Shown: piece by piece, positions 1 through 53,484 of the stretch | How the letters are laid out: the number at the start of each line of letters is the position of its first letter | How positions within the stretch are numbered: the stretch's first letter is position 1 | Origin: a bacterium | GTDB taxonomy: Bacteria > Patescibacteriota > Minisyncoccia > Phycocordibacterales > UBA2100 | Assembly (NCBI GenBank): GCA_030674455.1 | Contig: JAUSGQ010000007.1 | Span: 19,947 to 83,946, forward strand | Length of the DNA stretch: 64,000 bases | Direction of reading: 5' to 3' | Made by a program: the position numbers and the translations under genes | Notes under the pieces: generated by a model | What the model saw: only the letters and a program-made list of their open reading frames with translations | The model's database searches: none | What the model was told of the DNA's origin: nothing

Positions 1-331
1 GCCTACCTGCCACACGGGGACAGTATCGTGTTTCGGTTACGAACTTAAGAAAAACGCGATAAAAGAATTATTTGCTGTAATAAAAGACCGAAAGGCCTCG
101 CTTCCGGAAGGCTCGTACACCACGAGCTTGTTTAAGTCTGGCGTTGACAAGATTTCTCTAAAGGTCAGCGAGGAGGCTATGGAGGTCATACACGCCGCGC
201 AAAAACAAACGAAAGAGCGCTTAACGGAAGAAACGGTGGATTTGCTTTACCACTTGTTCGTGTTACTCGTCGAGAAAGGGCTTACCCTTGAGGAAATCGA
301 AGTTGAAATGCAAAACCGCGCCAAAAAGTAG
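1..331 (+). CDS. hisIE: bifunctional phosphoribosyl-AMP cyclohydrolase / phosphoribosyl-ATP pyrophosphatase HisIE, 3' portion (5' end outside window)
   Basis: Frame 2 is open from base 2. It translates to ...ACHTGxxSCF (the HisI C-terminal Cys motif) followed by ELKKNAIKELFAVIKDRK...EEAMEVIHAAQ, which is HisE-like. Confidence 0.65.
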   Translation, partial: PTCHTGTVSCFGYELKKNAIKELFAVIKDRKASLPEGSYTTSLFKSGVDKISLKVSEEAMEVIHAAQKQTKERLTEETVDLLYHLFVLLVEKGLTLEEIEVEMQNRAKK

Positions 332-414
332 AGATGTTGAAGCGATGTCGTTGTTTGTATTTGCATTGAGTCCATACTGAATACCAAATACTGAATACAA
401 GATACTCAGCATCT

Positions 415-741
415 ATGTCTATGGCGTATTTGAAAATCATTGTTTACGTTCCACTTGCCAACGCTGACGCCGTGCGTAAGGCGATAGGATATGCTGGCGG
501 CGGTAAAATCGGTAATTATTCCTTCTGCAGTTTTAGCAGCAGGGGAGTCGGCAGATTTTTACCGGAGACGGGGGCGCATCCTGCGACAGGAGAGATCGGG
601 AAACTTGAACAAGTGGAAGAGGAGCGCATTGAATTCGTTTGTGAGCCGGAATTAAGGGCAAAAGTGGTTGAGGCAATAAAGCGAGCCCACCCATACGAAG
701 AACCCGCGATTGACATCTGGCCTGTAGAAATCGAGCCTTAG
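415..741 (+). CDS. PII-like domain protein resembling the central insert domain of NIF3/YqfO family (GNYSxCSFxSxGxGxF...HPYEEPAxDI motif); called geneX below
   Basis: 108-aa ORF. The motifs GNYSFCSFSSRGVGRF and HPYEEPAIDIWP match the NIF3 middle domain as I recall it. Confidence 0.5.
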   Translation: MSMAYLKIIVYVPLANADAVRKAIGYAGGGKIGNYSFCSFSSRGVGRFLPETGAHPATGEIGKLEQVEEERIEFVCEPELRAKVVEAIKRAHPYEEPAIDIWPVEIEP

Positions 742-752
742 CCACTTTAATA

Positions 753-784
753 ACATTCCAACATTCTGCAGAATGTTGGAATGT
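753..784. repeat. perfect 32-bp palindrome ACATTCCAACATTCTG|CAGAATGTTGGAATGT, followed by a TTCTAGAAATGCT tail (copy 1 of 2)
   Basis: Self-complementary on inspection. A second near-identical copy lies at 1394..1425. Confidence 0.9.
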
Positions 785-855
785 TCTAGAAATGCTTCGG
801 CGGCTGTTGAACCATTAGCACAATGAGAGACTGGATGTCCCAACGCCATAAACAA

Positions 856-884
856 AGAGCAGGCGGGGCGACCTGCTCTTTTTG
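856..884. terminator. bidirectional rho-independent terminator (AGAGCAGG-loop-CCTGCTCT plus T-run, A-run upstream)
   Basis: GC stem with a T5 run, located between convergent genes 415..741(+) and 898..1380(-). Confidence 0.6.
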
Positions 885-897
885 GGTGTATGGGGGG

Positions 898-1380
898 TCA
901 GTCCACGACCTGAACCGCCTCCTTCATCCTTTCGTCAGTAAAGACCCCAACGCCGGTTGACTCTGATGTCTCGCGCAGACTACCGAACTCGGTCACCTCG
1001 AAGAAACCGAACGTGATCTTTCCGGTCGCTCCGTCCCAGTGGTGAGCGATTGTGTCGAAAACGGCGTACAGACCGTCACCGATGGAGGGACACTTTTCTT
1101 CTCCATCAACCAGCGCTACGACGCGATGGGGCGCATGATACTTTATGGCTCCCGTAGCTTCGCATTCCGCCAAAGAAACCACAAGACTCTTCGCCGGGAC
1201 TATTTGTACGCCCTTTTCCACGATGGTAATCCCAGCAGCTTTTAACGCACGCCGTAATTCGGCGCTGATAATTTCGGGCATAATTGCCTCCATTGATTTA
1301 GGGACGGTTTGCCAAGTGCATTCGTCTCCGCGTGGATAATGCATATATATATATCCTGTCAAGGAAAATCCGGCATACAA
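898..1380 (-). CDS. hypothetical protein (called geneY below). True start may be the internal Met, giving about 130 aa. It is flanked by the 32-bp palindrome pair.
   Basis: 160-aa ORF with no family I can name. It sits between the two palindromes and between the geneX 3' end and its diverged duplicate. Confidence 0.4.
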   Translation of the reverse strand: MYAGFSLTGYIYMHYPRGDECTWQTVPKSMEAIMPEIISAELRRALKAAGITIVEKGVQIVPAKSLVVSLAECEATGAIKYHAPHRVVALVDGEEKCPSIGDGLYAVFDTIAHHWDGATGKITFGFFEVTEFGSLRETSESTGVGVFTDERMKEAVQVVD

Positions 1381-1393
1381 ATTAACCCCCGTG

Positions 1394-1425
1394 ACATTCC
1401 AATATTCTTGAGAATGTTGGAATGT
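1394..1425. repeat. copy 2 of the 32-bp palindrome (2 mismatches), plus CGAGAAATGCTA tail
   Basis: ACATTCCAATATTCTTGAGAATGTTGGAATGT. It is in direct orientation with copy 1 (753..784). Confidence 0.9.
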
Positions 1426-1545
1426 CGAGAAATGCTACTGACACAACTGTCCGTAACTATTGACTCATTCTCACGAATTAGACAATAAGGAATTCTATTG
1501 ATGATTTATAACGATCTATTTTGAGCTGGTTTTTTATCGAATACC

Positions 1546-1623
1546 AACTACTTGCTTATTCGCGCGAATAAGCAAGTAGTTACGCAACTAATCTTCCTCC
1601 CTCCATACTCCATACGCGATACG
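1546..1623. repeat. intergenic element, copy 1. It has a perfect 36-bp palindrome AACTACTTGCTTATTCGC|GCGAATAAGCAAGTAGTT (TTCGCGCGAA core) and a conserved ATACTCCATACGCGATACG tail.
   Basis: A second copy lies at 2615..2706, with one mismatch in the palindrome and an identical tail. Confidence 0.85.
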
Positions 1624-1624
1624 A

Positions 1625-1681
1625 CAAGTTCATCCGTATGAAGAACCGGCGATCGATATTTGGCCGATAGAGATTCTTTAA
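1625..1681 (+). pseudogene. diverged duplicate of the 3' terminus of 415..741 (encodes ...HPYEEPAIDIWPIEIL*)
   Basis: The translation matches the C-terminus of geneX in 14 of 15 residues, while DNA identity is only about 70-75%. There is no start codon and no upstream coding context. Confidence 0.7.
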
Positions 1682-1843
1682 CAAAGAATATTTTGTCCAA
1701 TAGAATTCACACGAAGTTCAAGACCTCTTTGTTACTTTTAATTTTGATTCACCGAACGCAACAATTTGCGTGAGCGTTCTGATCTTATTTCTTTTGTTCT
1801 TTAAGGTCCATCCCCATACCCATCATCTAAAGGAGAGAAGGCC

Positions 1844-2368
1844 ATGATGCCTAGAAAGGGAATTCCGCTTCGGAAACGCGGAGGTAGCTTGTTTTTACGT
1901 AGCTACCTGCTTATAAATTCGTCCCTCTGCAGTATCAGCGGAGCGAATGAGCAGCTTGCGAAACTCTCCGAATCGTTGATTGTGATGACGACGAGTGCTG
2001 CGAATTCAGGAGCGCAGATTAAGGATTTTGAATTCCTAAATCCGATTGAAGTCGTTGTTGTTGCGAGCGCTAACGCCGATGCAGTCTTACTAACTGCAGC
2101 TCAAAGATTGGGCTGTTTTACAGTTTGTATCGGAACTCCTGACGATGAAGTCTCGGCGGATTTCATCACTCCTGATGTATTGGAGGCGTTGGACATGTTG
2201 ATGAACCCAACACAACTTAACGAACGTCTGCGCAACGGGCGCGGTAATAAGGGTTCCTTCTGGCAAACTACGATGTATTGGTGGGACTCGGTTCGCTCGT
2301 CTCGGTGGAAGTGCAAGCAAGCTGCCACTTCGCTCATCGCTAACCTCAATAAGGAAATTGTCGCCTGA
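1844..2368 (+). CDS. hypothetical protein
   Basis: 174-aa ORF with no recognisable family. The start is uncertain. Confidence 0.3.
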   Translation: MMPRKGIPLRKRGGSLFLRSYLLINSSLCSISGANEQLAKLSESLIVMTTSAANSGAQIKDFEFLNPIEVVVVASANADAVLLTAAQRLGCFTVCIGTPDDEVSADFITPDVLEALDMLMNPTQLNERLRNGRGNKGSFWQTTMYWWDSVRSSRWKCKQAATSLIANLNKEIVA

Positions 2369-2614
2369 GTCCGGATTTTGCGCGTTTGGCACGGAGGCAA
2401 TGGATATCCCTCTCGCTGTTCGCAGCGCGGGGGATTTCTACACATATTCATCCGAATAATCGGGAAATTTGTGTCAACCACAGTTACAGTATCGTTCACG
2501 CGCAAGAACATTCTAGTGAATTACTGATAAACACTCAACTCCCTAGCACGTTTCGTCCACCAACTGAGTCAAGATTTCCGCTAGTGAGTTACGTGAAAGT
2601 CAGTAGACCATGCA

Positions 2615-2706
2615 AACTACTTGCTTATTCGCGCGAATGAGCAAGTAGTTGAGTATAAATAGTTGAGTATCGAATCTTTCTATATGAATACTCCATACGC
2701 GATACG
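2615..2706. repeat. intergenic element, copy 2 (palindrome AACTACTTGCTTATTCGCGCGAATGAGCAAGTAGTT plus ATACTCCATACGCGATACG tail)
   Basis: Matches 1546..1623. Confidence 0.85.
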
Positions 2707-2776
2707 CCATACTAGATACATATGCATTGCATATCTGATGGGGTATACTGAATCATTAGTAATGCCTTAAAACCTC

Positions 2777-4213
2777 TTGCTTCAACATATGCTTGACCTT
2801 GGAGAAAAGTGCGGCGTTTTTGGAGTTTACGGGGAAGGATTGGACGTCGCGCGTATAACTTTCTTCGGTCTATTTGCACTTCAACATAGGGGTCAGGAAA
2901 GCTCCGGTATCGCATCTTCTGATGGCAAACGCATTGAATCGCACAAGGGCATGGGGCTCGTCTCGCAGGTCTTTTCCGAAGACGACATAAAAAAACTAAC
3001 CGGCCATATCGCTATCGGGCATAACCGGTATTCAACTGCCGGTGGGTCTCATGCGGATCACGCGCAGCCGACTATCGTGGGCGATTGGAGCATAGCTCTC
3101 GCTCACAACGGCAATATTCCCAGCACAGCCGCTTTGGAGGAATTCCTTCGGGCTCGGAATATTGAAACTGACAAACTTTCTGATTCTAGAATGATAGCGC
3201 AGGCAATCGCCGTGCTTGAGGGTGAAGGAGCGACACTGGAAGACGCGATTAAGAAAGCGTACCCGCTTATGACAGGTGCGTTTTCAATTCTTATAATGTC
3301 GAAAGATAAGCTGATCGCGATTCGCGATGAGTGTGGAATTCGCCCGCTTTCAATCGCAAAGCTCAACGGCGGCTTTGTATTTTCCTCCGAGACATGCGCA
3401 TTTCAAACAGTTGGTGCGGAATTTATTCGCGATGTAAATCCGGGTGAGATGGTAGTAGTAGACGCGAGCGGTTTGCGCGGTGAACAGCTTGTTCCTGCAA
3501 ATCCGAAGTTGGACATATTTGAATTCGTTTACTTTGCTCGACCGGATAGTCATTTACTGGGGAAATCGGTCTATGATGTGAGAAGGAATTTCGGCGTACA
3601 ACTTGCCAAGGAATATCCGCTTCGCGCGGATGTGGTTATCCCCGTTCCGGAAACAGCGATTCCGGTGGCAATCGGCTACGCAAACGAGTCCGGCATTCCG
3701 CTTGAAATGGGGCTGACAAAAAATCGTTACATTCACCGCACATTTATTGAGCCCGAACAGCACATCCGCGACCAGGGGGTGCGAGCGAAGCTCACCCCCA
3801 TTGCTGAAGTTATTAAGGGCAAACGTGTTGCGGTTATCGACGATTCAATAGTGCGCGGCACTACCTCCAGAAAAATCGTCGAGATGCTTTTCGGTGCAGG
3901 CGCTTCTGAAGTGCATTTTCTCGTCTCTTCTCCGCCGATAATGTTCCCTGATTTTTACGGTATTGATACTCCAAAACAGAAGAATCTTTTGGCATCCGAT
4001 AAGTCAATTCTTGAAATGAAGTCGTACCTTGGCGCAACATCGCTTAATTTTCTCTCATACATTGGAATGATAAAAGCAACCGGAATTTCGGAAGACCAGT
4101 TTTCAACGTCGTGTTTTACCGGAGAGTATCCAATAGACATCAAAGAGCGCATGAAGGAAATTGTAGCTAAGAAAGTCTGCTATACGCCGTTTGCGGATAA
4201 ACTGTCGGATTGA
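2777..4213 (+). CDS. purF: amidophosphoribosyltransferase (glutamine PRPP amidotransferase)
   Basis: N-terminal CGVFGV nucleophile motif and a PRTase domain; 478 aa. Confidence 0.9.
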   Translation: MLQHMLDLGEKCGVFGVYGEGLDVARITFFGLFALQHRGQESSGIASSDGKRIESHKGMGLVSQVFSEDDIKKLTGHIAIGHNRYSTAGGSHADHAQPTIVGDWSIALAHNGNIPSTAALEEFLRARNIETDKLSDSRMIAQAIAVLEGEGATLEDAIKKAYPLMTGAFSILIMSKDKLIAIRDECGIRPLSIAKLNGGFVFSSETCAFQTVGAEFIRDVNPGEMVVVDASGLRGEQLVPANPKLDIFEFVYFARPDSHLLGKSVYDVRRNFGVQLAKEYPLRADVVIPVPETAIPVAIGYANESGIPLEMGLTKNRYIHRTFIEPEQHIRDQGVRAKLTPIAEVIKGKRVAVIDDSIVRGTTSRKIVEMLFGAGASEVHFLVSSPPIMFPDFYGIDTPKQKNLLASDKSILEMKSYLGATSLNFLSYIGMIKATGISEDQFSTSCFTGEYPIDIKERMKEIVAKKVCYTPFADKLSD

Positions 4214-4268
4214 TATAGGCAACTCTGGGAAAGGACATCGCACTCTGCAGACCGCGGTCATTGAGACA

Positions 4269-4799
4269 TTAGTCCGCCATGCCATCTATATCGTCTGGCA
4301 GCAGTAGAACGCTCAAAGAACTCTCTCGCGCCAAACCAAGCGATGGGCGATCCGCGAAACCCACATACTCTACCTTCTTTCCCTTATTTAGGACGTATTT
4401 GATTGCCGGAATTAAATCTGTGTCAGAACTCACTATAACGGCGGTATCATACTCGTCCTCAACTGCCCCTATAACGAGGTCAATGGCGATTTTAACATCC
4501 ACTCCCTTTTCTCTGATTTTGTGGTCATAAACAATTCTTCCCCGCTCGATGAGGAATCCTTGAAGCTCTAGTGCGCTAAGAAATTTCTGCTGGCCTTCAA
4601 CCATCTTTTGACTTTGTTCAGTCTGATCATGGTTGCGAACTACTCCGATATAGTATCGTTTTGTCGACAAAGAACGTCCGCGAAGCAGACGGTCAATGAG
4701 TTTCGCGTAATTAAATCTCTTGCCCGGGAAAATGCCGCACTCTTTTAGTCGTTGGTACAGATTCCCGCCATCTATAAAGATAGCTACTTTCTCCGCCAT
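4269..4799 (-). CDS. NYN/LabA-like (PIN-like) domain protein
   Basis: The motifs IFIDGGNL...VDVKIAIDLV...VSSDTDLIPAI are present. The track ORF extends to 4874, but Met at 4799 (MAEKVAIFIDGGN) is the likely start. Confidence 0.7.
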   Translation of the reverse strand: MAEKVAIFIDGGNLYQRLKECGIFPGKRFNYAKLIDRLLRGRSLSTKRYYIGVVRNHDQTEQSQKMVEGQQKFLSALELQGFLIERGRIVYDHKIREKGVDVKIAIDLVIGAVEDEYDTAVIVSSDTDLIPAIKYVLNKGKKVEYVGFADRPSLGLARESSLSVLLLPDDIDGMAD

Positions 4800-5123
4800 C
4801 TGCCCAGTATACAACCAAAACTGCCCTTGCATTTCTGCAGGGGCAGTGAGGTTAGAAACCCCATTGTACACCACTGCACAGTTAATTTCCAGTGAAGGTG
4901 CATAACCCTAAAATAACCTTGAAAAGCTGCCTGTAAGTGCAGGCTCGGAATTCTATTCAGAGCGGAGAATTTCAAGTGATAGTGATTATTATTCTGATGA
5001 GGAGTATTACTATCATGGAGATGAGCCGGATATCTATTCTCCCTAGACACCTAAAATGACATTAGAAGTCTTTATTCTGTGAATTCATCGGTGGACAACA
5101 CGCGGTTCAGCCTGTAGTCTTGT

Positions 5124-6365
5124 TTGATGCAATATAAACCAAGCGATAGGATTCTTAAAAATTATGCGAATGTTCTGGTAAATTTTGCGCTCGGAGGAGG
5201 GAAGGGAATAAAGAAAGGAGAGGTTGTGCGCGTTTCAGCTTCCGAATCGGCGAAGCCGCTTTTTATGGCGGTTTGCAATGCGATTGTGGATGCCGGCGGA
5301 CATGTGATGTCACACTACGGTCCCGACGATGAACAGGGCGACAAGCGCCGCAACGTTTCCGTTTCGCGTTATTTTTACGAGCATGCTACCGACGAGCAGA
5401 TCAAACACTTTCCCGCAAAGTATCTTAAGGGCATCATCGATGAAATGGATCACTCGGTTTTCCTTCTTGCCGAGAAAGACCCGCACGCGCTCAAGGGCAT
5501 AGACGGAAAGAAGATTATGGCGCGCGGGCAAGCTCTCAAGCCGTTTATGGATTGGCGGCACGAGAAAGAATGGAAGGGAAAGTTTACATGGACCATTGCG
5601 CTCTACGGCACGCCAGCTATGGCCAGAGAAGCGGGCCTCTCTGAAAAAGAATACTGGCAACAAATTATCAAAGCCTGCTTTTTGGATGAAAAGGACCCTA
5701 TCGGGAAATGGAAAGCGGTATATCGCGATATAGAAAAATATCGCACTCGCCTCAACAAGTTGTCCCCTCGAATCGACAAACTTCACGCGGTCGGTGAGGA
5801 CATGGATATGTGGTACACGCTGGGAGAGAAGCGTGCGTGGCATGCAGGCTCGGGCCGCAATATACCGTCTTTCGAGATATTTACCTCGCCGGATTGGCGC
5901 GGGACCAACGGCTGGATTCGCGTCAATCAACCGCTTTATCGTTACAGCAATAAAATTACCGGCATCCAGCTGTGGTTTAAGGACGGCCTTGTCGTAAAAA
6001 GCAAAGCAAAAACTAACGAGAAACTGCTAAAGGAAATGATTGCGACGAAAGGTGCCGACAAAATCGGTGAGTATTCATTGACAGACAAACGCCACTCGCG
6101 CATTACCAAATTCATGGCGGAAACATTGTTTGATGAAAACATGGGCGGACCTTTTGGTAACTCACACATTGCGCTCGGCATGAGTTATCGCGACACGTAT
6201 GCAGGTGATGTATCGAAACTTACAGACGCGGAGGCAAAACGCTTGGGCTTCAACGACTCGTCCGTACATACTGATGTTGTTTCAACAACTGACAGAACAG
6301 TAACGGCACACCTCAAAGACGGCTCAACAAAAGTAATCTACAAAGACGGAAAGTTTGTGTTGTGA
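5124..6365 (+). CDS. ampS: aminopeptidase, M29 family (AmpS/PepS-like)
   Basis: At 413 aa the length and overall similarity to the thermophilic metalloprotease M29 family fit, as I recall that family. Confidence 0.65.
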   Translation: MMQYKPSDRILKNYANVLVNFALGGGKGIKKGEVVRVSASESAKPLFMAVCNAIVDAGGHVMSHYGPDDEQGDKRRNVSVSRYFYEHATDEQIKHFPAKYLKGIIDEMDHSVFLLAEKDPHALKGIDGKKIMARGQALKPFMDWRHEKEWKGKFTWTIALYGTPAMAREAGLSEKEYWQQIIKACFLDEKDPIGKWKAVYRDIEKYRTRLNKLSPRIDKLHAVGEDMDMWYTLGEKRAWHAGSGRNIPSFEIFTSPDWRGTNGWIRVNQPLYRYSNKITGIQLWFKDGLVVKSKAKTNEKLLKEMIATKGADKIGEYSLTDKRHSRITKFMAETLFDENMGGPFGNSHIALGMSYRDTYAGDVSKLTDAEAKRLGFNDSSVHTDVVSTTDRTVTAHLKDGSTKVIYKDGKFVL

Positions 6366-6570: not shown

Positions 6571-7338
6571 ATGAAAAACTCACAGCAAGGTTTTGCGCCA
6601 TTGTTACTTCTCGCGATTATCGCACTTTTAGCAATCGGCGGCGGGGCGTATGTGTATTTGCAAAAGAAGCAAGTAAATCTGCCCGAAGTGATTAAGACGC
6701 CTGCGCAGGCAAATCCAATTCCACAAACCCTGCCCCCTCAAAACCCTGTCTCTGATGCTAACAATGTAACTGCTAATTGGGAAACGTACACAAGCACTAA
6801 AGATGGCTACTCATTTCGGTATCCTGAAGAATGGAATATAGGCGATGGAGGAATTTTTTCGAAACAAGGAGTTCCAAGTAGTAGAAATGGATTTTTTGGC
6901 GCTTTTTATGCATCTGATTTATATGTACTGATTCACTCGCCGGAAAGCGCGAATTCCACAAGGAGAGCATCACCGCAAGAGGTAATGTCTGATGACTATC
7001 CATCAAATAGAGGTGTTAAAAAAGAAGAATGGCTTCATATTAATAATATTCCGGTTTTGTATTATGATACAACAAGTGACACCATTCCCGACGGTCCGAA
7101 CGGCGATATTAGATTTGTTATATTTACTGCCGAAAAGCAATACGTTTTTGTACTTAGTCCTGGCAATAAGGTGTCCCCGACATCTTTTGTGCCGGAAGAC
7201 ACCAATACAATGAAAAAGATAATTTCGACTTTTTCATTGCTTAATTCTTTTGATAAATTTGTAGATATGACGTCGATTCCGTTGAGTACTTTCCAATTAA
7301 AAACAACACCGTACCAACCATACCAACAAACACAGTAG
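6571..7338 (+). CDS. secreted/membrane-anchored hypothetical protein (N-terminal signal anchor)
   Basis: N-terminal hydrophobic segment LLLLAIIALLAIGGGAYVYL followed by a Pro/Gln-rich linker. Confidence 0.55.
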   Translation: MKNSQQGFAPLLLLAIIALLAIGGGAYVYLQKKQVNLPEVIKTPAQANPIPQTLPPQNPVSDANNVTANWETYTSTKDGYSFRYPEEWNIGDGGIFSKQGVPSSRNGFFGAFYASDLYVLIHSPESANSTRRASPQEVMSDDYPSNRGVKKEEWLHINNIPVLYYDTTSDTIPDGPNGDIRFVIFTAEKQYVFVLSPGNKVSPTSFVPEDTNTMKKIISTFSLLNSFDKFVDMTSIPLSTFQLKTTPYQPYQQTQ

Positions 7339-7982: not shown

Positions 7983-8216
7983 TGTAGGACTTACGCAACA
8001 TCTGAATCGTCTTTGCGAGGCTTTGCCGAAGCAATCTAGGGTTAGAGCTGTAGATTCTGGATTGCTTCGCTCCGCTCGCAAAGACGGGAAGCTCGGTTTT
8101 ACGCTGTCTTTTGGGGTTCTTGCGTAGGTCCTATAGTATAAAAGTATTCCGTATACGGTATTCAGTATTCCGACTTCCATACTGTATACAGAATACAAAA
8201 TACTGTATACTGATAA

Positions 8217-13238: not shown

Positions 13239-14477
13239 ATGCCGATTAACCACGCCATTCAAACGGCCTTTCGGGGGCTTAAAGCGAACAAAACACGCTC
13301 TGCACTCACCATACTAGGGATAGTAATCGGGGTCACGGCCATCATCATGGTGGTTTCGCTCGGGCAGGGCGCAAAGAACCTGATTTTAGGCCAAATTCAG
13401 GGTATTGGGGCGAAAACTATCGGCATTGTCCCGGGCCGTCAACCCAAAGGTCCGACTGATATTTTGGCAACGCTCACCGCGTCGCTAAAGGCGCGGGACA
13501 TCGTTGCATTGTCTCGAAAAGATAATGTACCGCATGCGCAGGACATCATGCCAGTAGTTTTTGGAAGCGAGACCGCGTCATACGGAGGTGAAACCTACAG
13601 GCCGACGATATTCGGGGGCAATGAACTGATGGCCGACATTTACGATTCGTATCCCGATCGCGGCAGAAGCATAACGGCAGACGACGTGCGCAGCTCCGCG
13701 GACGTGGTTGTCTTAGGTCAAACGGTAGTTGAAAAGCTTTCTCCCGACCATGACCTTTTGAACGAACGCATAAAAATCAAAGGTAGGAATTTCTTGGTAA
13801 TCGGAATACTTCCGAAAAAGGGCGGGGCCTCATTCATTAACTTTGATGAAATGGCGCTCATGCCGTACACAACCGCTCAAAATTATATTTTTGGCATCAA
13901 GCACTTTAATCGCGTGGTAGTAAGGGCTGACGATGAGTTGAATGTTGATGTGACTGTTAATGACATAAAGTCTACGCTTAGAGAACTGCACGGTATTACC
14001 GACCCGGAGAAAGACGATTTTGGCATTGAGACGCAGGCCGATGCACTGAAAACAGTCGGTACGATCCTCACCACCATGACGGTATTTCTGGCTATGGTTG
14101 CGGCAATATCGCTCGTAGTGGGAGGCATAGGAATTATGAACATAATGCTTGTTTCCGTGACGGACAGAACGCGGGAAATCGGGCTGCGAAAAGCGCTCGG
14201 CGCGACCAATAGAGACATTCTTATGCAATTCCTGCTTGAGGCAATCATCTTGACCGGCATTGGGGGAATCGTAGGCATTTTATTGGGTACCGGACTTTCA
14301 TTTGCAATTTCTTTAGTGATTACAAATGTGTTCGGTCTGATTTGGTCGTTTACATTCCCTCTAGGCGCTGCGATAGTCGGGATTCTAATTTCAACCATTG
14401 TTGGTCTTGTGTTCGGTCTTTACCCCGCTAGAAAGGCCTCACTGATGAGTCCTATTGAGGCTCTTCGGCACGAGTAG
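13239..14477 (+). CDS. ABC transporter permease, FtsX/MacB family
   Basis: MacB-type periplasmic domain and a C-terminal FtsX 4-TM domain. Confidence 0.85.
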   Translation: MPINHAIQTAFRGLKANKTRSALTILGIVIGVTAIIMVVSLGQGAKNLILGQIQGIGAKTIGIVPGRQPKGPTDILATLTASLKARDIVALSRKDNVPHAQDIMPVVFGSETASYGGETYRPTIFGGNELMADIYDSYPDRGRSITADDVRSSADVVVLGQTVVEKLSPDHDLLNERIKIKGRNFLVIGILPKKGGASFINFDEMALMPYTTAQNYIFGIKHFNRVVVRADDELNVDVTVNDIKSTLRELHGITDPEKDDFGIETQADALKTVGTILTTMTVFLAMVAAISLVVGGIGIMNIMLVSVTDRTREIGLRKALGATNRDILMQFLLEAIILTGIGGIVGILLGTGLSFAISLVITNVFGLIWSFTFPLGAAIVGILISTIVGLVFGLYPARKASLMSPIEALRHE

Positions 14478-14532
14478 CCTTTATTCACTTGCAGCGAATT
14501 CAAAGAGCGCGCTGGCTTTCATACGGGGCAGG

Positions 14533-14587
14533 CCCCGCTAGAAAGGCCTCACTGATGAGTCCTATTGAAGCCCTTAGACACGAATAA
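14533..14587 (+). pseudogene. duplicate of the permease 3' terminus (encodes PARKASLMSPIEALRHE*), part of a ~110-bp tandem duplication
   Basis: The first 37 nt are identical to 14423..14459. The last 6 codons differ only synonymously, so the peptide is identical. Confidence 0.75.
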
Positions 14588-14686
14588 ACTTAATTATCTT
14601 GCTGTGTAAGTTATTGATCACGCTGGCCTCCTTACGGGGCATGCGACCGCCAAAGAAACTTTCTCAATTTTGCCAAGACAGAATGT

Positions 14687-20149: not shown

Positions 20150-20302
20150 ATCTGTCGAGAAAGTACACTTTGCGGCTCAATCCTGATAGAGTGGGCGGAT
20201 GGCCAAGTTTAAAATTAAATCGGACTACAAACCGGCAGGCGACCCCGATACCATAAGTTCTGCGAACTTAGCTACGGGGCGGGACATGCCATATTTTGAT
20301 GT

Positions 20303-30838: not shown

Positions 30839-30843
30839 ATGAG

Positions 30844-30943
30844 TGCCAATCTACAAATGGACTCCAATCTACAAATAACTACGAATAAGCAATGCTCACA
30901 TTTGTAGCTATTCGTAGTATTCGGATGATTCGTAGATTGGGAC
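30844..30943. repeat. ~100-bp composite palindromic repeat (CCAATCTACAAAT ... ATTCGTAGATTGG), family copy R1 of 6, REP/BIME-like
   Basis: It shares words with the copies at 42502, 47001, 48156, 49350 and 61654, and it fills the carA-carB spacer. Confidence 0.85.
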
Positions 30944-30955
30944 ATAATAAATATT

Positions 30956-32014: not shown

Positions 32015-32238
32015 AATGTATGAGACCCTACTTCGCTTCCTCCTACGTCAAGACTACGGAGGACAAGAAAGCTACGAAGGGTTGCTCTCTCATGAAAATG
32101 CCCGCTTACTGCGGGCAGAAATGGAGAGCAAAAAAATACACCCGGGCGGGTGTTTCTCTTATTAATTCCTTGCGAGTTCATTAAAGTTGAATTATATGCC
32201 CATATTTGCCGGTGTCAAATTTTAACCTGGCTGTGGAT

Positions 32239-33561
32239 ATGTCGCGTGAGTATACTGGAAACATGGTGCGCGATGACTTAATCAAATTTAAATTGCCCGA
32301 CAGTCCGGGTATATACTATTATCGAAATTCGAGGGGCAAAATTCTATACATTGGTAAAGCTACATCTCTGCGCGACCGCGTACGGAGCTATTTTTTGTCA
32401 GGTCTATCGGAATCTCGAAGCACGGCAATCGCAGCAATGATAGATGAGACGCACTCCGTCACATGGCAAACGACCGAGTCGGTTCTTGAAGCTCTGATAC
32501 TCGAAGCGAATGAGATAAAAAAACATCAGCCGAAATACAATGCACGAGAAAAGGACGACAAGAGCTTTAATTTTCTCGTAATCACAAAGGAAGATTTCCC
32601 GCGCGTTTTAGTAATTCGCGGCCGCGAACTATTTTCTCCACTTATCGCTAATCGCTATTCGCTAACCGCTATCTTCGGCCCATATCCGCAGGGACGTTCA
32701 CTGCAAGAAGCTCTGAAAATCGTTCGGAAAATATTTCCTTTCCGCGATAAATGCATTCCATGTGACACTGCGGAAAAATCCTTACTTTCTAATTCGCGCG
32801 AATTAGAAAGTAAAGAAACTCATGTACATCTTAAACATAAATGCAGGCCGTGCTTCAATCATCAGATAGGATTATGTCCCGGTGTATGCAGTGGGGAAAT
32901 ATCAAAAAACGATTATGCTCGAACTATACGACACATTAAGACTCTATTTTCAGGGAAAATAAAGAGGTTGAAGAGGGATCTGGAACGAGAAATGAGAGCC
33001 GAATCGAAAGCCGAGCGATTTGAAAAGGCCGCCATATTGCGTCGACAAATTGGTTCGTTAAACCACATACGCGACGTATCGCTAATAAATAACGATAACA
33101 TGGCCGATTTACCCAGGAAACCTACGAGGATAGAGGCGTATGACGTGGCACATACGTCGGGATCGGAGACAGTAGCCGTAATGACTGTTGTGAATAATGG
33201 CGAGCCCGAAAAGAGTTCCTACAGAAAATTCAAGATTCAAACTGCTGCAAACGACGACATTGGAGCACTCAAAGAGGTTCTCTCACGCCGCCTGGCGCAC
33301 TCGGAGTGGCCCTTGCCGAGCGTGTTTGTTGTGGACGGAGGAACTGCGCAATTGCGTGCGGCCGCAAATATTCTAAAAGACGCTGGTATAATGATTCCCG
33401 TGGTATCTGTGGTAAAAAACGAATTTCATAAACCCGAACGGCTCATGGGAGATACGAATGCAATTAAGACCTTGGGAAAAGAAATTCTTCTTGCCAATCA
33501 AGAAGCGCATCGTTTTGCGATTACGTATCATAGAAAACGACGAGGTCGACTAACGATATGA
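32239..33561 (+). CDS. uvrC: excinuclease ABC subunit C, short form lacking C-terminal HhH
   Basis: GIY-YIG motif (PGIYYY...ILYIGKA), a UVR domain and an RNase H-like endonuclease domain. The track start at 32206 is also possible. Confidence 0.85.
   Translation: MSREYTGNMVRDDLIKFKLPDSPGIYYYRNSRGKILYIGKATSLRDRVRSYFLSGLSESRSTAIAAMIDETHSVTWQTTESVLEALILEANEIKKHQPKYNAREKDDKSFNFLVITKEDFPRVLVIRGRELFSPLIANRYSLTAIFGPYPQGRSLQEALKIVRKIFPFRDKCIPCDTAEKSLLSNSRELESKETHVHLKHKCRPCFNHQIGLCPGVCSGEISKNDYARTIRHIKTLFSGKIKRLKRDLEREMRAESKAERFEKAAILRRQIGSLNHIRDVSLINNDNMADLPRKPTRIEAYDVAHTSGSETVAVMTVVNNGEPEKSSYRKFKIQTAANDDIGALKEVLSRRLAHSEWPLPSVFVVDGGTAQLRAAANILKDAGIMIPVVSVVKNEFHKPERLMGDTNAIKTLGKEILLANQEAHRFAITYHRKRRGRLTI
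32782..32813. repeat. perfect 32-bp palindrome TTACTTTCTAATTCGC|GCGAATTAGAAAGTAA in frame in uvrC (encodes LSNSRELESK)
   Basis: TTCGCGCGAA core, as in the intergenic copies and the yggS copy. Confidence 0.8.
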
Positions 33562-42496: not shown

Positions 42497-42501
42497 ATTG
42501 T

Positions 42502-42597
42502 CCCAATCTACGAATCATCCGAATACTACAAATGACTGCAAATACTCGCATTTCTTATTCGTAGACATTTGTAGATTGGAATCCATTTGTAGATTGG
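42502..42597. repeat. composite GTAG-palindromic repeat, copy R2, filling the recR-dnaB spacer
   Basis: It has the words CCAATCTACGAAT and ATTTGTAGATTGG, the latter twice. Confidence 0.85.
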
Positions 42598-42601
42598 CAC
42601 T

Positions 42602-47000: not shown

Positions 47001-47114
47001 CCCAATCTGCAAATATATTCCAATCAACGAATGAATCCCAATCTACAAATGGCTACGAATGGACAATGCTTACATTTGTAGTTATTCGTAGTATTCGTAT
47101 CATTTGTAGATTGG
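47001..47114. repeat. composite GTAG-palindromic repeat, copy R3 (ends 7 nt before the mltG start)
   Basis: Same family. Confidence 0.85.
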
Positions 47115-47120
47115 AACTCT

Positions 47121-48152
47121 ATGGCTTCCTTTGAAAAATTCCTTGAACGCGCATTCGACGCATATGACCGCGTTTTGAATGATTTGTCGAATCGATGGCG
47201 GGAACACGCGAATCGCAGAACGATAATTACGCTCCTATCCGTCGGCACATTGGCGATAGTGTTATACCTGAACGTCATACGACCGCCGGACAACTTTCCG
47301 CTCGATACGCTCGTGACTATAGAAGATGGCGCGACGGTAAGCGATGCCGCCTCGGTGCTTGAGTCAAATCACGTTGTGCGTTCCGGAACGGCCTTGCGAT
47401 ATCTCATTATCCTGCTTGGTGACCAGAAAAATGTGCATGCAGGAGATTATCTTTTTAAAGAACCGCGCGATTTATTCAGCGTAGCGCGCGCTATTGTAAT
47501 CGGGGCATATGGACTGGAACCTCTGCGCATTCGCATTCCCGAGGGCGCGACGACAAAAGAAATGGCGCGCATTTTAGAAGCGCGGCTTCTGCGCTTCAAC
47601 GGCGATACATTTATCGCTGAAGCACAACCGCTGGAGGGATTCCTTTTTCCCGATACCTATTATTTTCTTCCGAACGCAAGCGAAGAACTTGTGATTCGAA
47701 CAATGCGTCAGACATTTGACACGCGGACATCGGAAATTGACGCACAAATCAAATCATTCGGAAAACCACTGAATGACGTCATTATAATGGCATCTCTTTT
47801 AGAGCGTGAGGCGCGCACATCAAAAGACAGAAGAATGATTGCCGGAGTTTTGTGGAATCGGTTGAACAAAGGCATGTTGCTCCAGGTTGACGCCGCTTTT
47901 CGCTACACCATCGGAAAGGGAACATACCAGCTGACGACAGAAGACCTCGCGAGCGATTCCCCCTACAACACGTATCGGAACCCAGGGTTGCCGCCGACAC
48001 CCATCGGTAGCCCAAGTCTTGATTCCATCCTGGCGGCCGTTACTCCCCTCAAGCATAACTATTTATATTACCTTGCCGATAGAAGCGGAGTTACTCACTA
48101 CAGCAAGACATACGCCGAACATTTGCGATATAAGCGAAAATATATAGACTAA
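47121..48152 (+). CDS. mltG: endolytic murein transglycosylase MltG (YceG family)
   Basis: N-terminal TM anchor and LEGFLFPDTY, ASLLEREA and NTYRNPGLPPTPI motifs. Confidence 0.9.
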   Translation: MASFEKFLERAFDAYDRVLNDLSNRWREHANRRTIITLLSVGTLAIVLYLNVIRPPDNFPLDTLVTIEDGATVSDAASVLESNHVVRSGTALRYLIILLGDQKNVHAGDYLFKEPRDLFSVARAIVIGAYGLEPLRIRIPEGATTKEMARILEARLLRFNGDTFIAEAQPLEGFLFPDTYYFLPNASEELVIRTMRQTFDTRTSEIDAQIKSFGKPLNDVIIMASLLEREARTSKDRRMIAGVLWNRLNKGMLLQVDAAFRYTIGKGTYQLTTEDLASDSPYNTYRNPGLPPTPIGSPSLDSILAAVTPLKHNYLYYLADRSGVTHYSKTYAEHLRYKRKYID

Positions 48153-48155
48153 AGT

Positions 48156-48266
48156 GCCAATCTGCGAATGATACGAATACTACGAATGGCTACAAATGTG
48201 AGTGTTGATTATTCGTAGTTATTTGTAGATTGGAATATATTCGTAGATTGGTACTTGTTAGATTGG
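48156..48266. repeat. composite GTAG-palindromic repeat, copy R4
   Basis: Same family. Confidence 0.85.
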
Positions 48267-48273
48267 AACATGT

Positions 48274-49392
48274 ATGTCAAAAACAGTTTTCGTTGGTTTG
48301 TCGGGTGGCGTCGATTCCGCCGTTTCGGCTGCGCTGCTTAAAGAGCAAGGCTATAACGTCGCTGGCGTATTCATAAAAATCTGGCAACCTGAATTTATAG
48401 AATGCACGTGGGCGAAAGACCGTCTGGACGCGATGCGCGTTTGCGTTTCGCTCGGAATCCCGTTCCAGGAAATAGACCTTTCATCTGATTACAAACGCAC
48501 GGTTGTGGACGACATGATCTCCGCATATTCGCGCGGCATCACTCCAAATCCGGATGTCCTGTGCAATAGACACATAAAATTCGGCAGTTTTATGAACTAT
48601 GCGCGCAAAGAGGGTGCGGATTATATTGCGACGGGACATTACGCCCGTGTCGCCTTAGGCGACCGCAGATTTACGCAGAAAGAACCCAAAAACGTATACA
48701 AATTATTAAGAGGGTCAGATAACAATAAAGACCAGTCATACTTCTTGTACTTATTGAAACAGGATGACCTTGTGCATACGCTATTCCCCGTGGGAAATCT
48801 TTTAAAGTCAGAGGTAAGGAAGCTTGCAGCTAAGTTTTCTCTTCCTGTTGCAGAAAAATCCGATAGCCAAGGATTGTGCTTTGTCGGCGATGTGACGATG
48901 AAGGATTTTCTCTCGAGATATATGAAACTCGACGAAGGAAAAGTCATAGATACAAATGGCACATGCATAGGCAGTCACGAAGGAGCTGCGCTTTATACGA
49001 TAGGACAACGACACGGATTCACAACCGAGCGCCTTGCGGGTGACAGAACCCCGTACTATGTCGTCTCTGTTAATATTCCCGCGAATACAATAACTGTTTC
49101 CACAAGGCGCGACGACGCAACGCAAAAAGATATACGCATCGACTCAATGCATTGGATATCGGGCGCTCCGGAAATGCCGTTGCGCGCACAAACACAGGCG
49201 AGATATAGAGAAAAACCGAGCGAAGCAACAATTTCTGTAGAGGGTGGAGGTGTGAGCGTTGCTTTTGATGAGCCGCAAATTGCCGCGGCCGGGCAATCGA
49301 TCGTTGTGTATAACGACGACACATGTTTAGGCGGAGGCACCATAGAGTACCAATCTACGAATGAATTCCAATCTACAAATAACTACGAATAA
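48274..49392 (+). CDS. mnmA: tRNA-specific 2-thiouridylase MnmA. The last ~14 codons (YQSTNEFQSTNNYE) are encoded by repeat copy R5.
   Basis: PP-loop SGGVDS and MnmA domains. The ORF reads into the repeat before reaching a stop. Confidence 0.9.
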   Translation: MSKTVFVGLSGGVDSAVSAALLKEQGYNVAGVFIKIWQPEFIECTWAKDRLDAMRVCVSLGIPFQEIDLSSDYKRTVVDDMISAYSRGITPNPDVLCNRHIKFGSFMNYARKEGADYIATGHYARVALGDRRFTQKEPKNVYKLLRGSDNNKDQSYFLYLLKQDDLVHTLFPVGNLLKSEVRKLAAKFSLPVAEKSDSQGLCFVGDVTMKDFLSRYMKLDEGKVIDTNGTCIGSHEGAALYTIGQRHGFTTERLAGDRTPYYVVSVNIPANTITVSTRRDDATQKDIRIDSMHWISGAPEMPLRAQTQARYREKPSEATISVEGGGVSVAFDEPQIAAAGQSIVVYNDDTCLGGGTIEYQSTNEFQSTNNYE

Positions 49393-49444
49393 TCATTTCT
49401 CCACATTTGTAGCCATTCGTAGTATTCGTGCATTCGTAGATTGG
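49350..49444. repeat. composite GTAG-palindromic repeat, copy R5
   Basis: Same family. Confidence 0.85.
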
Positions 49445-49459
49445 GACTATACTATTTAA

Positions 49460-50341
49460 ATGCAAACATATGCACGTGGTGCGTCATCAGTAGCTCACGG
49501 TTATGGTGCGCAAAATATTGGGAGTGTATTGATTACAAAAGCAGACGGCGAGCAAGAAATGTTCGTCCCTACCAAGCTGGATAACTCTCTAGCACGCGTA
49601 GGCGTTGGGCCAGACATGCGCAAGCGTGTCATTGACCATGTCATACGCGAACTGAAACCCGGCATGACTACTGAAGAAATTTATCGGCACGCTTTCGATA
49701 TCCTGCGTAGGGAAGAAAGCGCGCCCATGGCGGCGCGCTATTCGATAAAGCGGGCGGTTTTCGCCCTTGGTCCTTCGGGATTTCCTTTTGAGCAATTCCT
49801 GGCGGAGATACTGCGCGCGCACGGATGGACATGCCGCACTGGAGCAGCACTCAATGGTCACTGTGCTCCACACGAAGTAGATGTGTTAGCAGAAAAGAGC
49901 GGAAGAAAAATCGGAATCGAAGCAAAGTTCCACAATGATGCCGGGGGAAAGACCGATATTAAAGACGCACTTTATGTGCATGCCCGCTATGAGGATTTGA
50001 AGAAAACGACGGAGGAATCTTCCCACGTTGATGAGGGGTGGCTCGTCACTAATACTACTTTTACACACAACGCAATCCGCTATGCGCAATGCTCCGGCCT
50101 GACGCTCCTCGGATGGGATTATCCGAACGGCCGCGGACTCCTGCCTATGATAGAAGAAGCAAAAGTCCATCCTTTGACCTGCCTCACGACTCTTACAGAG
50201 GGTGAAAAACGGCAATTGCTCGACAACAAAATTGTTCTGTGCAAGAGCGTGCAATCGCGGCACCTGCTGGATGAATACGGCATCCGGCCAGGACGAATAC
50301 CTCAAGTAATGGAGGAAGCCCAGCGCCTATGCGGGATATGA
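49460..50341 (+). CDS. ATP-cone domain + Mrr-like restriction-endonuclease (PD-(D/E)XK) domain protein
   Basis: N-terminal ATP-cone-like segment (VPTKLDNSLARVGV...) and a C-terminal Mrr_cat-like segment (FEQFLAEILRAHGW...VDVLAEK...IEAKF...LVTNTTFT). The real start may be an internal Met. Confidence 0.5.
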   Translation: MQTYARGASSVAHGYGAQNIGSVLITKADGEQEMFVPTKLDNSLARVGVGPDMRKRVIDHVIRELKPGMTTEEIYRHAFDILRREESAPMAARYSIKRAVFALGPSGFPFEQFLAEILRAHGWTCRTGAALNGHCAPHEVDVLAEKSGRKIGIEAKFHNDAGGKTDIKDALYVHARYEDLKKTTEESSHVDEGWLVTNTTFTHNAIRYAQCSGLTLLGWDYPNGRGLLPMIEEAKVHPLTCLTTLTEGEKRQLLDNKIVLCKSVQSRHLLDEYGIRPGRIPQVMEEAQRLCGI

Positions 50342-50449
50342 GTACAGTATACAGTATTCCGTATTCCGTATTCTGTATTCTGTATTTTTTATACAGTATA
50401 CTAGATACTGAATACAGTATACACGTTTAAGGGTGCTATACTTTGAATT

Positions 50450-51977: not shown

Positions 51978-52712
51978 ATGATTATGACCGAGAAGCAGGA
52001 ACAGGAATCGGACGTTAAGATGGAAGAATCATGGAAAAACGCGTTAAAGGATGAATTCGGGCAGGACTACTTCAAGCAACTGCGGGAATTCGTCAAAGGC
52101 GAGTACAAGCATGCCATCGTGTACCCGCCGCCAAAGAATATCTTTCGCGCGTTTGAGCTTTGCCCCTTTGATAAAGTCGAGGTTGTGCTACTCGGACAAG
52201 ACCCATATCACGGCCCGAAACAGGCAAATGGACTCTGTTTCGCAGTGAGCGAAGGGCTTGCTCTACCGCCCTCTCTTCAGAATATCTTTAAGGAATTGGC
52301 CGCAGATATGGGATTGTCCCACGATGCCTTGCTTGCCCGTCGAAGCCTTGGCGAAGTCGGGGCGAAGAAGGGTGGAACTCTTGAGGATTGGGCCAAGCAA
52401 GGTGTTCTACTACTCAATGCAACATTGACCGTGGCAGCGCGCGCGCCCGGTTCGCATCAAGGAAAGGGGTGGGAAGAATTTACCGATGCGGTTATACGCA
52501 AACTTTCTAACGAGCGCGAGAATCTAGTCTTTATTCTTTGGGGCAACTACGCAAAAGCCAAAGGCGCGCACATCGACCGCACCAAGCACCTCGTCATTGA
52601 ATCCGCGCACCCTTCGCCTTTTTCCGCCGACCGCTTCTTCGGCTCTAAACCTTTCAGCAAAACGAACGAATATCTGAAAGCCCACGACAAAAAGCCGATT
52701 GATTGGTTGTAA
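51978..52712 (+). CDS. ung: uracil-DNA glycosylase, family 1
   Basis: GQDPYHGP, LLLNATLTV and HPSPFSA motifs, with C-terminal KKPIDWL. Confidence 0.9.
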   Translation: MIMTEKQEQESDVKMEESWKNALKDEFGQDYFKQLREFVKGEYKHAIVYPPPKNIFRAFELCPFDKVEVVLLGQDPYHGPKQANGLCFAVSEGLALPPSLQNIFKELAADMGLSHDALLARRSLGEVGAKKGGTLEDWAKQGVLLLNATLTVAARAPGSHQGKGWEEFTDAVIRKLSNERENLVFILWGNYAKAKGAHIDRTKHLVIESAHPSPFSADRFFGSKPFSKTNEYLKAHDKKPIDWL

Positions 52713-52713
52713 T

Positions 52714-53420: not shown

Positions 53421-53438
53421 ATCGATAATAATAACATG

Positions 53439-53465: not shown

Positions 53466-53484
53466 ACTTCCAGTGGATAAGAGT

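Follow-up and report, generated by a model that had tools for sequence, protein, structure and literature searches.

We studied the interval between a small gene, here called geneX, and purF (amidophosphoribosyltransferase) in a 64,000-nucleotide stretch (hereafter the window) from the metagenome-assembled genome (MAG) of an uncultured bacterium of the Patescibacteria, or candidate phyla radiation (CPR). The his operon lies upstream of geneX, with hisIE as its last gene; the complete hisIE was read on contig L001, which overlaps the window. The NCBI proteins of the locus carry the tags Q7S01_01070, _01075 and _01080 and belong to a contig of 154 kb. From geneX to purF the interval spans 2,035 bp, the most complex state among those that we saw. 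As judged by alignment, the backbone order in this clade appears to be geneX, a palindrome (P1), a spacer motif, a second palindrome (P2), ATACnnn heptads and purF. The window reads geneX, P1 and spacer motif; then the end of a P1, a terminator, orf160, P1, spacer motif, P2 and heptads; then a geneX tail, orf174, P2, heptads and purF. Read from left to right, the backbone order thus restarts twice. It seems that the DNA between the NIF3-like gene and purF was remodelled two or more times through imprecise recombination with diverged relatives, and that two orphan genes, palindromes in duplicate and a stranded tail of a gene are what remains of these events. The features are as follows; L085 is a relative whose spacer holds neither inserted gene.

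1..331, + strand: 3' end of hisIE (PRA-PH domain; Pfam PRA-PH, 2.2e-14), conserved left flank
415..741, + strand: geneX, intact copy; a 108-aa PII/CutA-like domain that stands alone and is a homologue of the NIF3/YqfO insert domain
753..784, no strand: P1a, perfect 32-bp palindrome (16+16)
785..831, + strand: sp_a, first copy of the backbone spacer motif, 78% over 46 nt to the L085 spacer
832..838, + strand: junction 1 (tentative), TGGATGT, a probable right-arm end left over from a P1; the orf160 block starts here
857..885, no strand: hairpin resembling a bidirectional terminator, with A-run, GC stem and T-run; geneX and orf160 converge on it
898..1380, - strand: orf160, cargo of block 1; probable true coding sequence 898-1281, 127 aa, start MPEIIS
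1394..1425, no strand: P1b, second P1 copy, 29/32 match to P1a, upstream of orf160
1426..1488, + strand: sp_b, second copy of the spacer motif (CATTCTCACGAATTAGACA), 78% over 41 nt to the L085 spacer
1541..1623, + strand: P2a and heptad tail ending in GCGATACG, first copy of the purF-upstream backbone
1616..1623, + strand: junction 2, 8-bp microhomology GCGATACG common to the purF-upstream heptads and geneX codons A-I-R
1616..1681, + strand: orphan 3' end of a diverged geneX allele, frame reading AIRQVHPYEEPAIDIWPIEIL*; left end of block 2
1844..2368, + strand: orf174, a singleton ORFan carried by block 2 as cargo; its Shine-Dalgarno sequence is good
2610..2706, + strand: P2b and heptad tail, the second backbone copy, continuous with the promoter region of purF
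2777..4213, + strand: purF (Pfam GATase_6/7, Pribosyltran), conserved right flank

Two characteristics place geneX, as a predicted protein, in the family of NIF3/YqfO insert domains: (i) PII-like homology, its family profile matching residues 160-262 of PDB 2gx8 (E = 1.8e-39) and 2nyd/3lnl at 5e-20; and (ii) a C-terminal HPYEEP motif, which is almost invariant in geneX, with H92, P93, Y94 and E96 invariant in 32 sequences. The C-terminal end of the resident protein reads ...AIKRAHPYEEPAIDIWPVEIEP*. Most of the 812 homologues come from Patescibacteria (Parcubacteria/Kaiserbacteria-like). Elsewhere in the window, a 387-aa protein without a Pfam match (58563-59726) contains CEPELRAKIVDTLRKGF, which resembles CEPELRAKVVEAIKRAH of geneX (E = 5e-5), and may be a divergent NIF3-like relative.

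The geneX-purF interval among relatives

We collected relatives by scanning a genome collection with a geneX alignment (80 loci) and added metagenome contigs through exact-protein look-ups. The interval occurs in five states among them. Empty sites, which the first-pass annotation of this DNA had suggested looking for, are present in L017, L063 and L083, where geneX lies 26, 94 and 106 bp from purF, respectively; the synteny in L063 is hisIE-geneX-purF-M29. In L085/L086 the spacer is 315 bp long and free of orf160, orf174 and remnant; its parts are a P1 split at the centre by a 48-nt insertion, the spacer motif (...CCATTCGCGCGAATTAGAC), P2, the ATACnnn heptads and the purF promoter. In L002, geneX is followed by a P1 with a long loop, by the terminator and by a homologue of orf160 (56-57% identical) encoded on the other strand; after these come P1, the spacer and the promoter of purF. 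Remnant, orf174 and P2 are missing from L002. The spacer between geneX and purF is therefore a hypervariable hotspot with presence/absence polymorphism. Diverged alleles also co-occur, because the backbone-only relative L086 comes from the same sequencing run, SRR13727527, as an independent assembly of the locus. The base composition of the inserts is not atypical.

PurF is 88-90% identical in amino acid sequence to its counterparts in L063, L083 and L085 (90% in L063). Per-gene identity to these three distant relatives ranges from 58% to 94%, with no clear step at the locus. Two genes downstream are likewise absent from the syntenic L063, L083 and L085: an NYN-domain gene (4269-4874, - strand) between purF and the M29 peptidase gene, and, past M29, an ORFan (6571-7338, + strand). 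Intergenic gaps along this stretch have commonly gained genes, and no flanking palindromes were evident.

The stranded geneX tail and the two blocks

A tblastn search recovered the orphan geneX tail (E = 2e-9). The first-pass annotation had reported the end of geneX together with an orphan frame that shares its last residues; both are present. It had placed the start of the orphan at 1625, within 1-2 nt of the point where remnant-only sequence begins (1624), and similarity to geneX itself starts earlier, at 1616. When geneX 673-732 is aligned with 1616-1675, 42 of 60 nt (70%) and 16 of 20 residues are identical. Thirteen of the 18 differences fall at third codon positions (pS = 1.03 at synonymous and pN = 0.10 at nonsynonymous sites), and among 200,000 simulations with 18 random substitutions none gave four or fewer amino acid changes. 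Because the differences are mostly at third positions, the tail derives from a functional homologue, as had been proposed from the sequence at first sight. We consider it a sound reading that this tail evolved within a working gene of another lineage, under purifying selection. Its DNA is 86% identical to geneX of L007, 81% to that of L085 and 70% to the resident copy. Second geneX tails are absent from the 80 other genomes except in L044, a Paceibacterota MAG (JBAYJB010000006.1), which has two full geneX copies at 4034-6300 (93% identical over 319 nt) around a 1.6-kb insert. Encoded in that insert are an ORF that looks secreted and a Fic-like protein whose HPFxDGNGR motif was recognized by eye; the insert adjoins a 576-aa ORF that by eye resembles DUF262/GmrSD.

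These substitution patterns bear on whether the stretch from geneX tail to heptads arose by tandem duplication in situ, within one lineage, with later divergence and replacement of the cargo. Such a duplication would account for GCGATACG at both ends of the repeat unit, which is what unequal crossing-over or slippage would use, and a simple 110-bp tandem repeat does occur at another scar in the window (macB/ftsX, below). A non-functional copy is, however, expected to change randomly, and pS near 1 with pN of 0.10 is incompatible with that, as the simulations indicate. The interiors of the two blocks (orf160 versus orf174), moreover, share no detectable homology. We disfavour in-situ duplication and regard it as exceedingly improbable.

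The right-hand junction of the first backbone copy (junction 2) could be read to the nucleotide. An element with TTCGCGCGAA had been noticed before; it is the core of P2a, a perfect 36-bp palindrome (1546-1581) that is identical to the P2 of L085 at 39 of 39 positions. What had been missed is its second copy, P2b (2615-2650, 35/36 match to P2a), and the tail that both copies share up to GCGATACG; P2 has no further copies in the 64-kb window. Both P2-heptad copies contain TACTCCATACGCGATACG, and the 18 nt leading up to the junction are identical. After GCGATACG, copy 2 enters the purF promoter, as L085 does (74% over 141 nt to L085 upstream of purF), and copy 1 switches to ACAAGTTCATCCG..., the geneX tail. 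On the + strand of the window GCGATACG occurs at 1616 and 2699 only. Because it sits at both sites and also at the homologous geneX codons A-I-R (codons 87-89) in L085/L086 and L088, junction 2 is a classic microhomology joint, at which one allele's heptad tract meets the geneX 3' end of a different allele. The microhomology is supplied by the purF-proximal heptad tract. We note that 7-nt periodic ATACnnn/GTATnnn tracts lie upstream of several genes in the window, including geneX and purF (373-407, 2685-2725, 8143-8213, 50339-50422 and 59729-59763).

The two direct P2-heptad repeats (83-97 bp) enclose the remnant, 162 bp, orf174 and 240 bp. This enclosed DNA may represent the right-hand part of an allele with the order geneX-orf174-P2-heptads-purF. 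A search of 5.8 billion proteins returned orf174 itself and no homologue; there was no Pfam or PHROG match, and PADLOC gave a weak one (E = 0.0056). The P2 core recurs in the L085/L002 spacer and, in frame, within uvrC (32206-33561), where a 38-bp palindrome with TTCGCGCGAA at its core occupies 32779-32816 (...CIPCDTAEKSLLSNSRELESKETHVHLKHKCRPCFNHQIGLC...). It presumably adds about 20 residues between the Cys motifs relative to E. coli UvrC, and looks like an in-frame insertion in the style of Rickettsia palindromic elements. An Rfam search of window positions 1-3000 gave sub-threshold chance matches only, and neither P1 nor P2 has an Rfam family there.

We asked whether co-occurring strains could have been joined at shared palindromes during assembly. 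Related populations do co-occur in run SRR13727527, and contigs of the independent Logan assembly of that run do end at palindromes: L001, with the his operon and geneX, ends at the P1a centre, and L087 starts at the P2a centre. These breaks fall at the perfect palindromes P1a and P2a and not at the junctions. L087 then runs through heptads, junction 2, remnant, orf174, P2b, purF and the NYN-domain gene at 100% identity, so that junction 2 is no artefact of the MAG assembly. It also lies in unique sequence, 35-42 nt beyond P2a; junction 1 is likewise in non-repeated sequence, and a de Bruijn join is not possible from an 8-bp overlap. An assembly chimera is excluded for junction 2 and scarcely credible for the locus as a whole.

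The orf160 block is bordered by P1 and the spacer motif on both sides (motif at 785-828 and 1448-1488). Both 32-bp palindromes had been recognized in the first reading at 753..784 and 1394..1425, and they are as described, the second agreeing at 29 of 32 positions; calling the second copy a direct repeat has no meaning, because P1a is a perfect palindrome. P1a is predicted to fold into a DNA hairpin of -14.6 kcal/mol (z = -7.6), and strong single-stranded DNA (ssDNA) hairpins are predicted for P1 and P2 alike. A search for other copies of the palindrome or of the cassette, which had also been suggested, gave no further P1 in the 64-kb window (chance expectation 0) and no identical cassette at a second site. 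In 1,000 shuffles neither alignment score of sp_a or sp_b to the L085 spacer was reached. To the left of orf160, window positions 832-888 align with L002 starting inside the right arm of the L002 P1 (TGGAATGT), at 78% over 60 nt and with none of 1,000 shuffles scoring as high. The bidirectional terminator that had been proposed is there as a hairpin at 862-879 followed by a T run, with a preceding A run read by eye, and the hairpin is conserved in L002 and L209.

The 160-aa minus-strand frame (898-1380) exists, as annotated, but its true start is probably at 1281, which would make the product 127 aa long, because a GGAGG Shine-Dalgarno sequence lies 5 nt upstream of that position in the window and in L002 alike. 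Remote-homology searching, also suggested at the outset, recovered one close homologue (P0002, 56-57% identity) and about eight small remote relatives in a profile search of 1.84 billion representatives; there was no sequence-family match, and the predicted structure matched no known fold. The AF2 model, from a 10-sequence alignment, has a pLDDT of 92 and a pTM of 0.84, with two N-terminal helices followed by mostly beta structure. Orf160 appears to be a rare small protein, beta-rich in this model, without sign of a recombination function. Of the two roles first offered for it, cargo or recombination function, it fits the first, as cargo of block 1; nothing indicates the second. A homologue, P0124 on L209, stands in another gene context with no P1 within 659 bp.

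The segment 742..1624 had initially been taken for one integrated cassette. That the DNA is inserted and polymorphic agrees with our results; that it is a single unit bounded by the geneX tails does not. The P1, spacer, P2 and heptads of this segment belong to the native backbone, which L085/L086 show in the same order. L002, furthermore, has P1-orf160-P1 without the remnant, which belongs to the other block (remnant-orf174-240 bp). A housekeeping enzyme in invariant synteny had been named as the finding that would count against insertion; since the interval shows five states among relatives and orf160 is not a housekeeping enzyme and belongs to a very rare family, we found the reverse.

The same evidence speaks to a site-specific element of the e14/icd type, which would have integrated in the geneX 3' end, brought its own replacement tail and displaced the native one. 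The e14 prophage in icd with its icdC pseudo-tail (Hill 1989; PMC13626634) has this topology, an intact gene and a displaced pseudo-tail that differ mainly at synonymous positions and bracket the inserted DNA, and the ung locus of the window repeats it (below). Here, by contrast, neither an integrase nor an excisionase was found between the geneX copies or within 2 kb; what lies between the copies is orf160, with no family and no recombinase-like fold, and short spurious frames. No att core is clear either, the longest identical run between the two tails being 8 nt (GAAGAACC). The insert, of about 0.9-2 kb, lacks element-like content and includes the native intergenic backbone (P1, spacer, P2, heptads) that the insert-free L085/L086 also have, L002 has the orf160 block without a remnant, and the remnant adjoins purF-upstream sequence in place of an element end. 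The e14-type explanation is largely refuted, and we hold it to be very unlikely.

Probable stacking of diverged alleles

The interval is best read as recombination scars in layers, within an intergenic hotspot of high variability, and a known process explains it best. We think it probable that diverged alleles of one hypervariable spacer were stacked in tandem through homology-facilitated illegitimate recombination (HFIR). We infer this pathway because microhomology, duplicated native flanks, the foreign signature of the remnant, recurring scars and the lack of a recombinase point the same way. The data show the anatomy of the interval, its presence/absence polymorphism among relatives, the microhomology and the signature of purifying selection in the remnant, whereas the route of DNA uptake and the donor side are, like the pathway, inferred. 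The window carries three partial passes over the backbone in tandem: (i) geneX-P1a-sp_a (415-831); (ii) the P1 arm vestige, terminator, orf160, P1b, sp_b, P2a and heptads (832-1623); and (iii) the 3' tail of a second geneX allele, orf174, P2b, heptads and purF (1616 onward). A separate diverged allele of this locus would have supplied each pass, the cargo differing or being absent. The incoming DNA would stem from a related lineage, probably by natural transformation, and would be anchored by homologous pairing in a conserved flank, either that of the his operon and geneX or that of P2-heptads and purF. At the opposite end of the incoming DNA a short microhomology, GCGATACG in the case of junction 2, would allow an out-of-register joint, and the resident allele would therefore be displaced and not replaced. 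Accretion of this kind would push the resident geneX tail and cargo downstream and keep them as a scar.

The locus has several hallmarks of HFIR. Illegitimate joints of HFIR use 3-10 bp of microhomology, and here the two copies are identical for the 18 nt up to the end of GCGATACG and then diverge. Conserved anchors are available in hisIE/geneX on the left and in P2-heptads-purF on the right, both of which are kept in relatives. Foreign origin is indicated by a remnant that is nearer to other lineages and by blocks that are absent from relatives. No integrase or recombinase was found in or near the locus among the proteins scanned. Saccharibacteria have been shown to undergo natural transformation with homologous recombination, and com genes are conserved throughout the CPR (PMC10633639).

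As described in the passages of PMC5361080 and PMC3240628 that treat this work (de Vries & Wackernagel 2002; Prudhomme 2002; Meier & Wackernagel 2003), HFIR in Acinetobacter, S. pneumoniae and P. stutzeri likewise combines one homologous anchor with an illegitimate joint at microhomology (8 bp here), adds foreign DNA beside a conserved gene and does not require a dedicated recombinase. In those systems HFIR was observed, whereas here it is read from scars in an uncultured CPR genome; and the incoming DNA here was apparently a diverged allele of the same locus, giving a tandem allele stack with duplicated backbone. HFIR has also been proposed as the source of orphaned 3' gene ends and their downstream genes in type VI secretion system (T6SS) and Rhs arrays (PMC5361080). 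In such Rhs, contact-dependent inhibition (CDI) and T6SS effector-immunity orphan arrays (Jackson 2009; Kirchberger 2017, PMC5361080), successive insertions displace the earlier 3' end and downstream gene, leaving strings of orphaned 3' fragments plus cargo genes. GeneX differs in being a small PII-like protein whose C-terminus is conserved and not polymorphic, and the toxin/immunity logic is absent here, the cargo being unrelated ORFans.

Several points weigh against stacking by HFIR. HFIR is rare in experimental systems (PMC5361080, discussion). We found no donor allele with orf174 downstream of geneX, and because of this, and because orf174 is a singleton, the third pass is read solely from the remnant and the P2 duplication. 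Alignment scores for P1 or spacer vestiges in the orf174 block lie within the shuffle range. Junction 1 is marked by a 7-nt vestige and one relative, in a single assembly. The relatives are too diverged to place the homologous crossover or to name the donor flank. Finally, strong palindromes bound both blocks, and P1-gene-P1 modules recur in unrelated metagenome contigs; a palindrome-directed mechanism could have acted instead. In a Campbell-type variant, another allele would release a circle by excision at its two GCGATACG sites, and this circle would re-enter by homologous recombination in P2-heptads; the variant predicts the same product as HFIR.

If HFIR did stack these alleles, the locus shows cleanly, in nature, how the streamlined genome of an uncultured CPR bacterium may gain and stack orphan genes without mobile-element machinery, with the tail of the previous allele's gene persisting as a datable scar. 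The structure is real, but it is a fairly ordinary scar and no new mobile cassette. Current understanding is not overturned by this tidy, somewhat unusual example of a known process. Its signature, an orphan gene end that differs from the neighbouring gene mainly at synonymous sites, can be searched for in MAGs.

Other scars in the window and P1 beyond the locus

Three further scars made of diverged gene ends are present in the window, at ung, macB/ftsX and uvrB. The ung locus (51978-53570) comprises an intact ung, a 27-bp palindrome (52715-52741), a Y1_Tnp/RAYT-like gene on the - strand (52728-53510) and an orphan ung tail from about 53479 (FFGSKPLGKTNEYL...), which matches at 36 of 48 nt (pS 0.72, pN 0.13). 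The parallel that the first-pass annotation drew between this locus and geneX is borne out, the topology being the same. At the macB/ftsX permease gene (14423-14602), a segment made of the last 17 codons and roughly 55 nt of downstream sequence has a tandem copy 110 bp further on, with 86% nucleotide identity; the tail copies agree at 17 of 17 amino acids, and their 5 nucleotide differences are all synonymous. The orphan, diverged 5' head of uvrB (MAKFKIKSDYKPAGDPD...) at 20202-20252, 50 bp upstream of the uvrB start at 20303, is the mirror image of the 3' scars. Four scars in 64 kb suggest frequent illegitimate recombination with DNA of related lineages, which fits the conserved competence genes.

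The RAYT-like gene raises a further explanation for the geneX locus, in which single-strand transposition of the RAYT/REP type (IS200/IS605-like) would use the P1 and P2 hairpins as ends and mobilize the gene between them. A Y1 transposase with its own flanking palindromes does lie beside the ung remnant, and P1 and P2, like REP sequences and REPINs, are strong extragenic palindromes predicted to form ssDNA hairpins. The RAYT palindrome (TTCTACCAAGG...), which has a third copy inside its own ORF (53235-53261) and another at 53439-53465, is however unrelated to P1 and P2. These differ from REP sequences in having low copy number (two each in 64 kb, all at this locus) and no RAYT partner, and P1 often stands beside an ArsR-type gene. 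HUH transposition, moreover, neither duplicates 45-95 nt of flanking backbone nor creates diverged copies of gene tails. We judge RAYT-type transposition highly improbable.

P1 itself is widespread. An exact-core pattern search of metagenome contigs gave at least 132 copies on at least 120 contigs (L089-L208); P1 is absent from IMG/VR viral contigs, as is P2, and from the surroundings of geneX in the 80 other genomes (771 kb). Among the matches listed, the contigs range from 29% to 60% GC, the palindrome centres are TGCA, TTGA, TCAA, TATA or TTAA, and A·T pairs usually lengthen the palindrome to some 38 bp, the third flanking pair alternating between AT and CG. These copies are intergenic in all orientations, 11 of them between convergent genes, and some lie inside ORFs. 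About 27 of the 132 listed copies lie 16-45 bp upstream of an ArsR/HVO_A0114-type (HTH_5) winged-helix gene or overlap its last 13 nt. The proteins are 90-105 aa long, and where P1 overlaps the gene the overlap includes the stop codon (...TFQHS*). In three contigs (L095 1799-2171, L149 6767-7211 and L157 3046-3415) the gene stands between two P1 copies spaced 340-415 bp apart. It is a reasonable lead that P1 is a candidate ArsR operator; in the ArsR-linked modules it could be an operator or a module boundary. This link may be the more useful lead for gene regulation in the CPR, given a 30-38-bp palindrome in many metagenomic lineages. The window has no ArsR-type gene, and a candidate decayed ArsR 3' end to the right of P1b was too weak to claim (tblastn E = 1.8).

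The recurrence of P1 also bears on palindrome-directed cassette exchange, in which P1 and P2 would serve an unrecognised site- or hairpin-specific recombinase as att-like (dif/lox/attC) sites, and the enzyme would insert single-gene modules and leave a palindrome copy on each side. Consistent with this, each cargo gene is bracketed by its own palindrome, orf160 by P1 and orf174 by P2; the P1 layout (13-6-13 or 15-2-15) resembles a recombinase core site; the P1 of L085 and of L002 is interrupted by an insertion exactly at its centre; and the P1-ArsR-P1 modules and the conservation of listed P1 copies across contigs of 29-60% GC would follow. The duplications, however, pass the palindromes into ordinary backbone (about 45 nt of spacer motif and about 43 nt of heptad tail), and the junctions fall outside the palindromes, junction 2 being 35-42 nt 3' of P2a, in the coding remnant. 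No recombinase was found near the locus in the window, P1 and P2 have two copies each there with no identical cassette seen at a second site, and the roughly one-fifth of listed P1 copies at operator-like distance from an ArsR-type gene suggest a regulatory site. We therefore think cassette exchange at this locus unlikely, although it is the strongest of the alternatives to HFIR.

Integron cassettes and the pdif modules of Acinetobacter offer a comparison, in that single promoter-proximal genes lie between palindromic sites, imperfect or perfect. The locus differs from them in having no IntI or Xer gene nearby and in its breakpoints outside the palindromes; hisIE and geneX lie upstream, and no tyrosine recombinase was found among the proteins scanned. 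P1 and P2 lack the R''/L''/L'/R' asymmetry and extrahelical bases of attC. P1a and P2a are perfect, the same palindrome flanks the cargo on both sides, and GTTGGAA of P1 does not fit GTTRRRY. That P1, and perhaps P2, are sites of a palindrome-directed single-gene cassette system that has gone unrecognised in the CPR is a distinctly unlikely proposition. Were it true, P1-gene-P1 modules (ArsR-type, orf160) would move between genomes, the locus would be a small cassette array and imprecise events at these hairpins would have produced the gene-tail remnants as by-products. Stacking of diverged alleles by HFIR is the account that we prefer.

Two further observations concern repeats. On contig L093 (6671-7863), truB contains an in-frame P1 (...QHSNILKNVGML...), followed by an exact 473-bp tandem duplication of its 3' part; both duplicate copies begin at P1, and the duplication could be a recent event or an assembly artefact. 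The window also carries composite palindromic intergenic repeats of about 100 nt, built from the units CCAATCTACAAAT and ATTCGTAG in both orientations, at the following positions.

30842-30944, composite repeat
42499-42601, composite repeat
47020-47121, composite repeat
48154-48255, composite repeat
49346-49447, composite repeat
61652-61753, composite repeat

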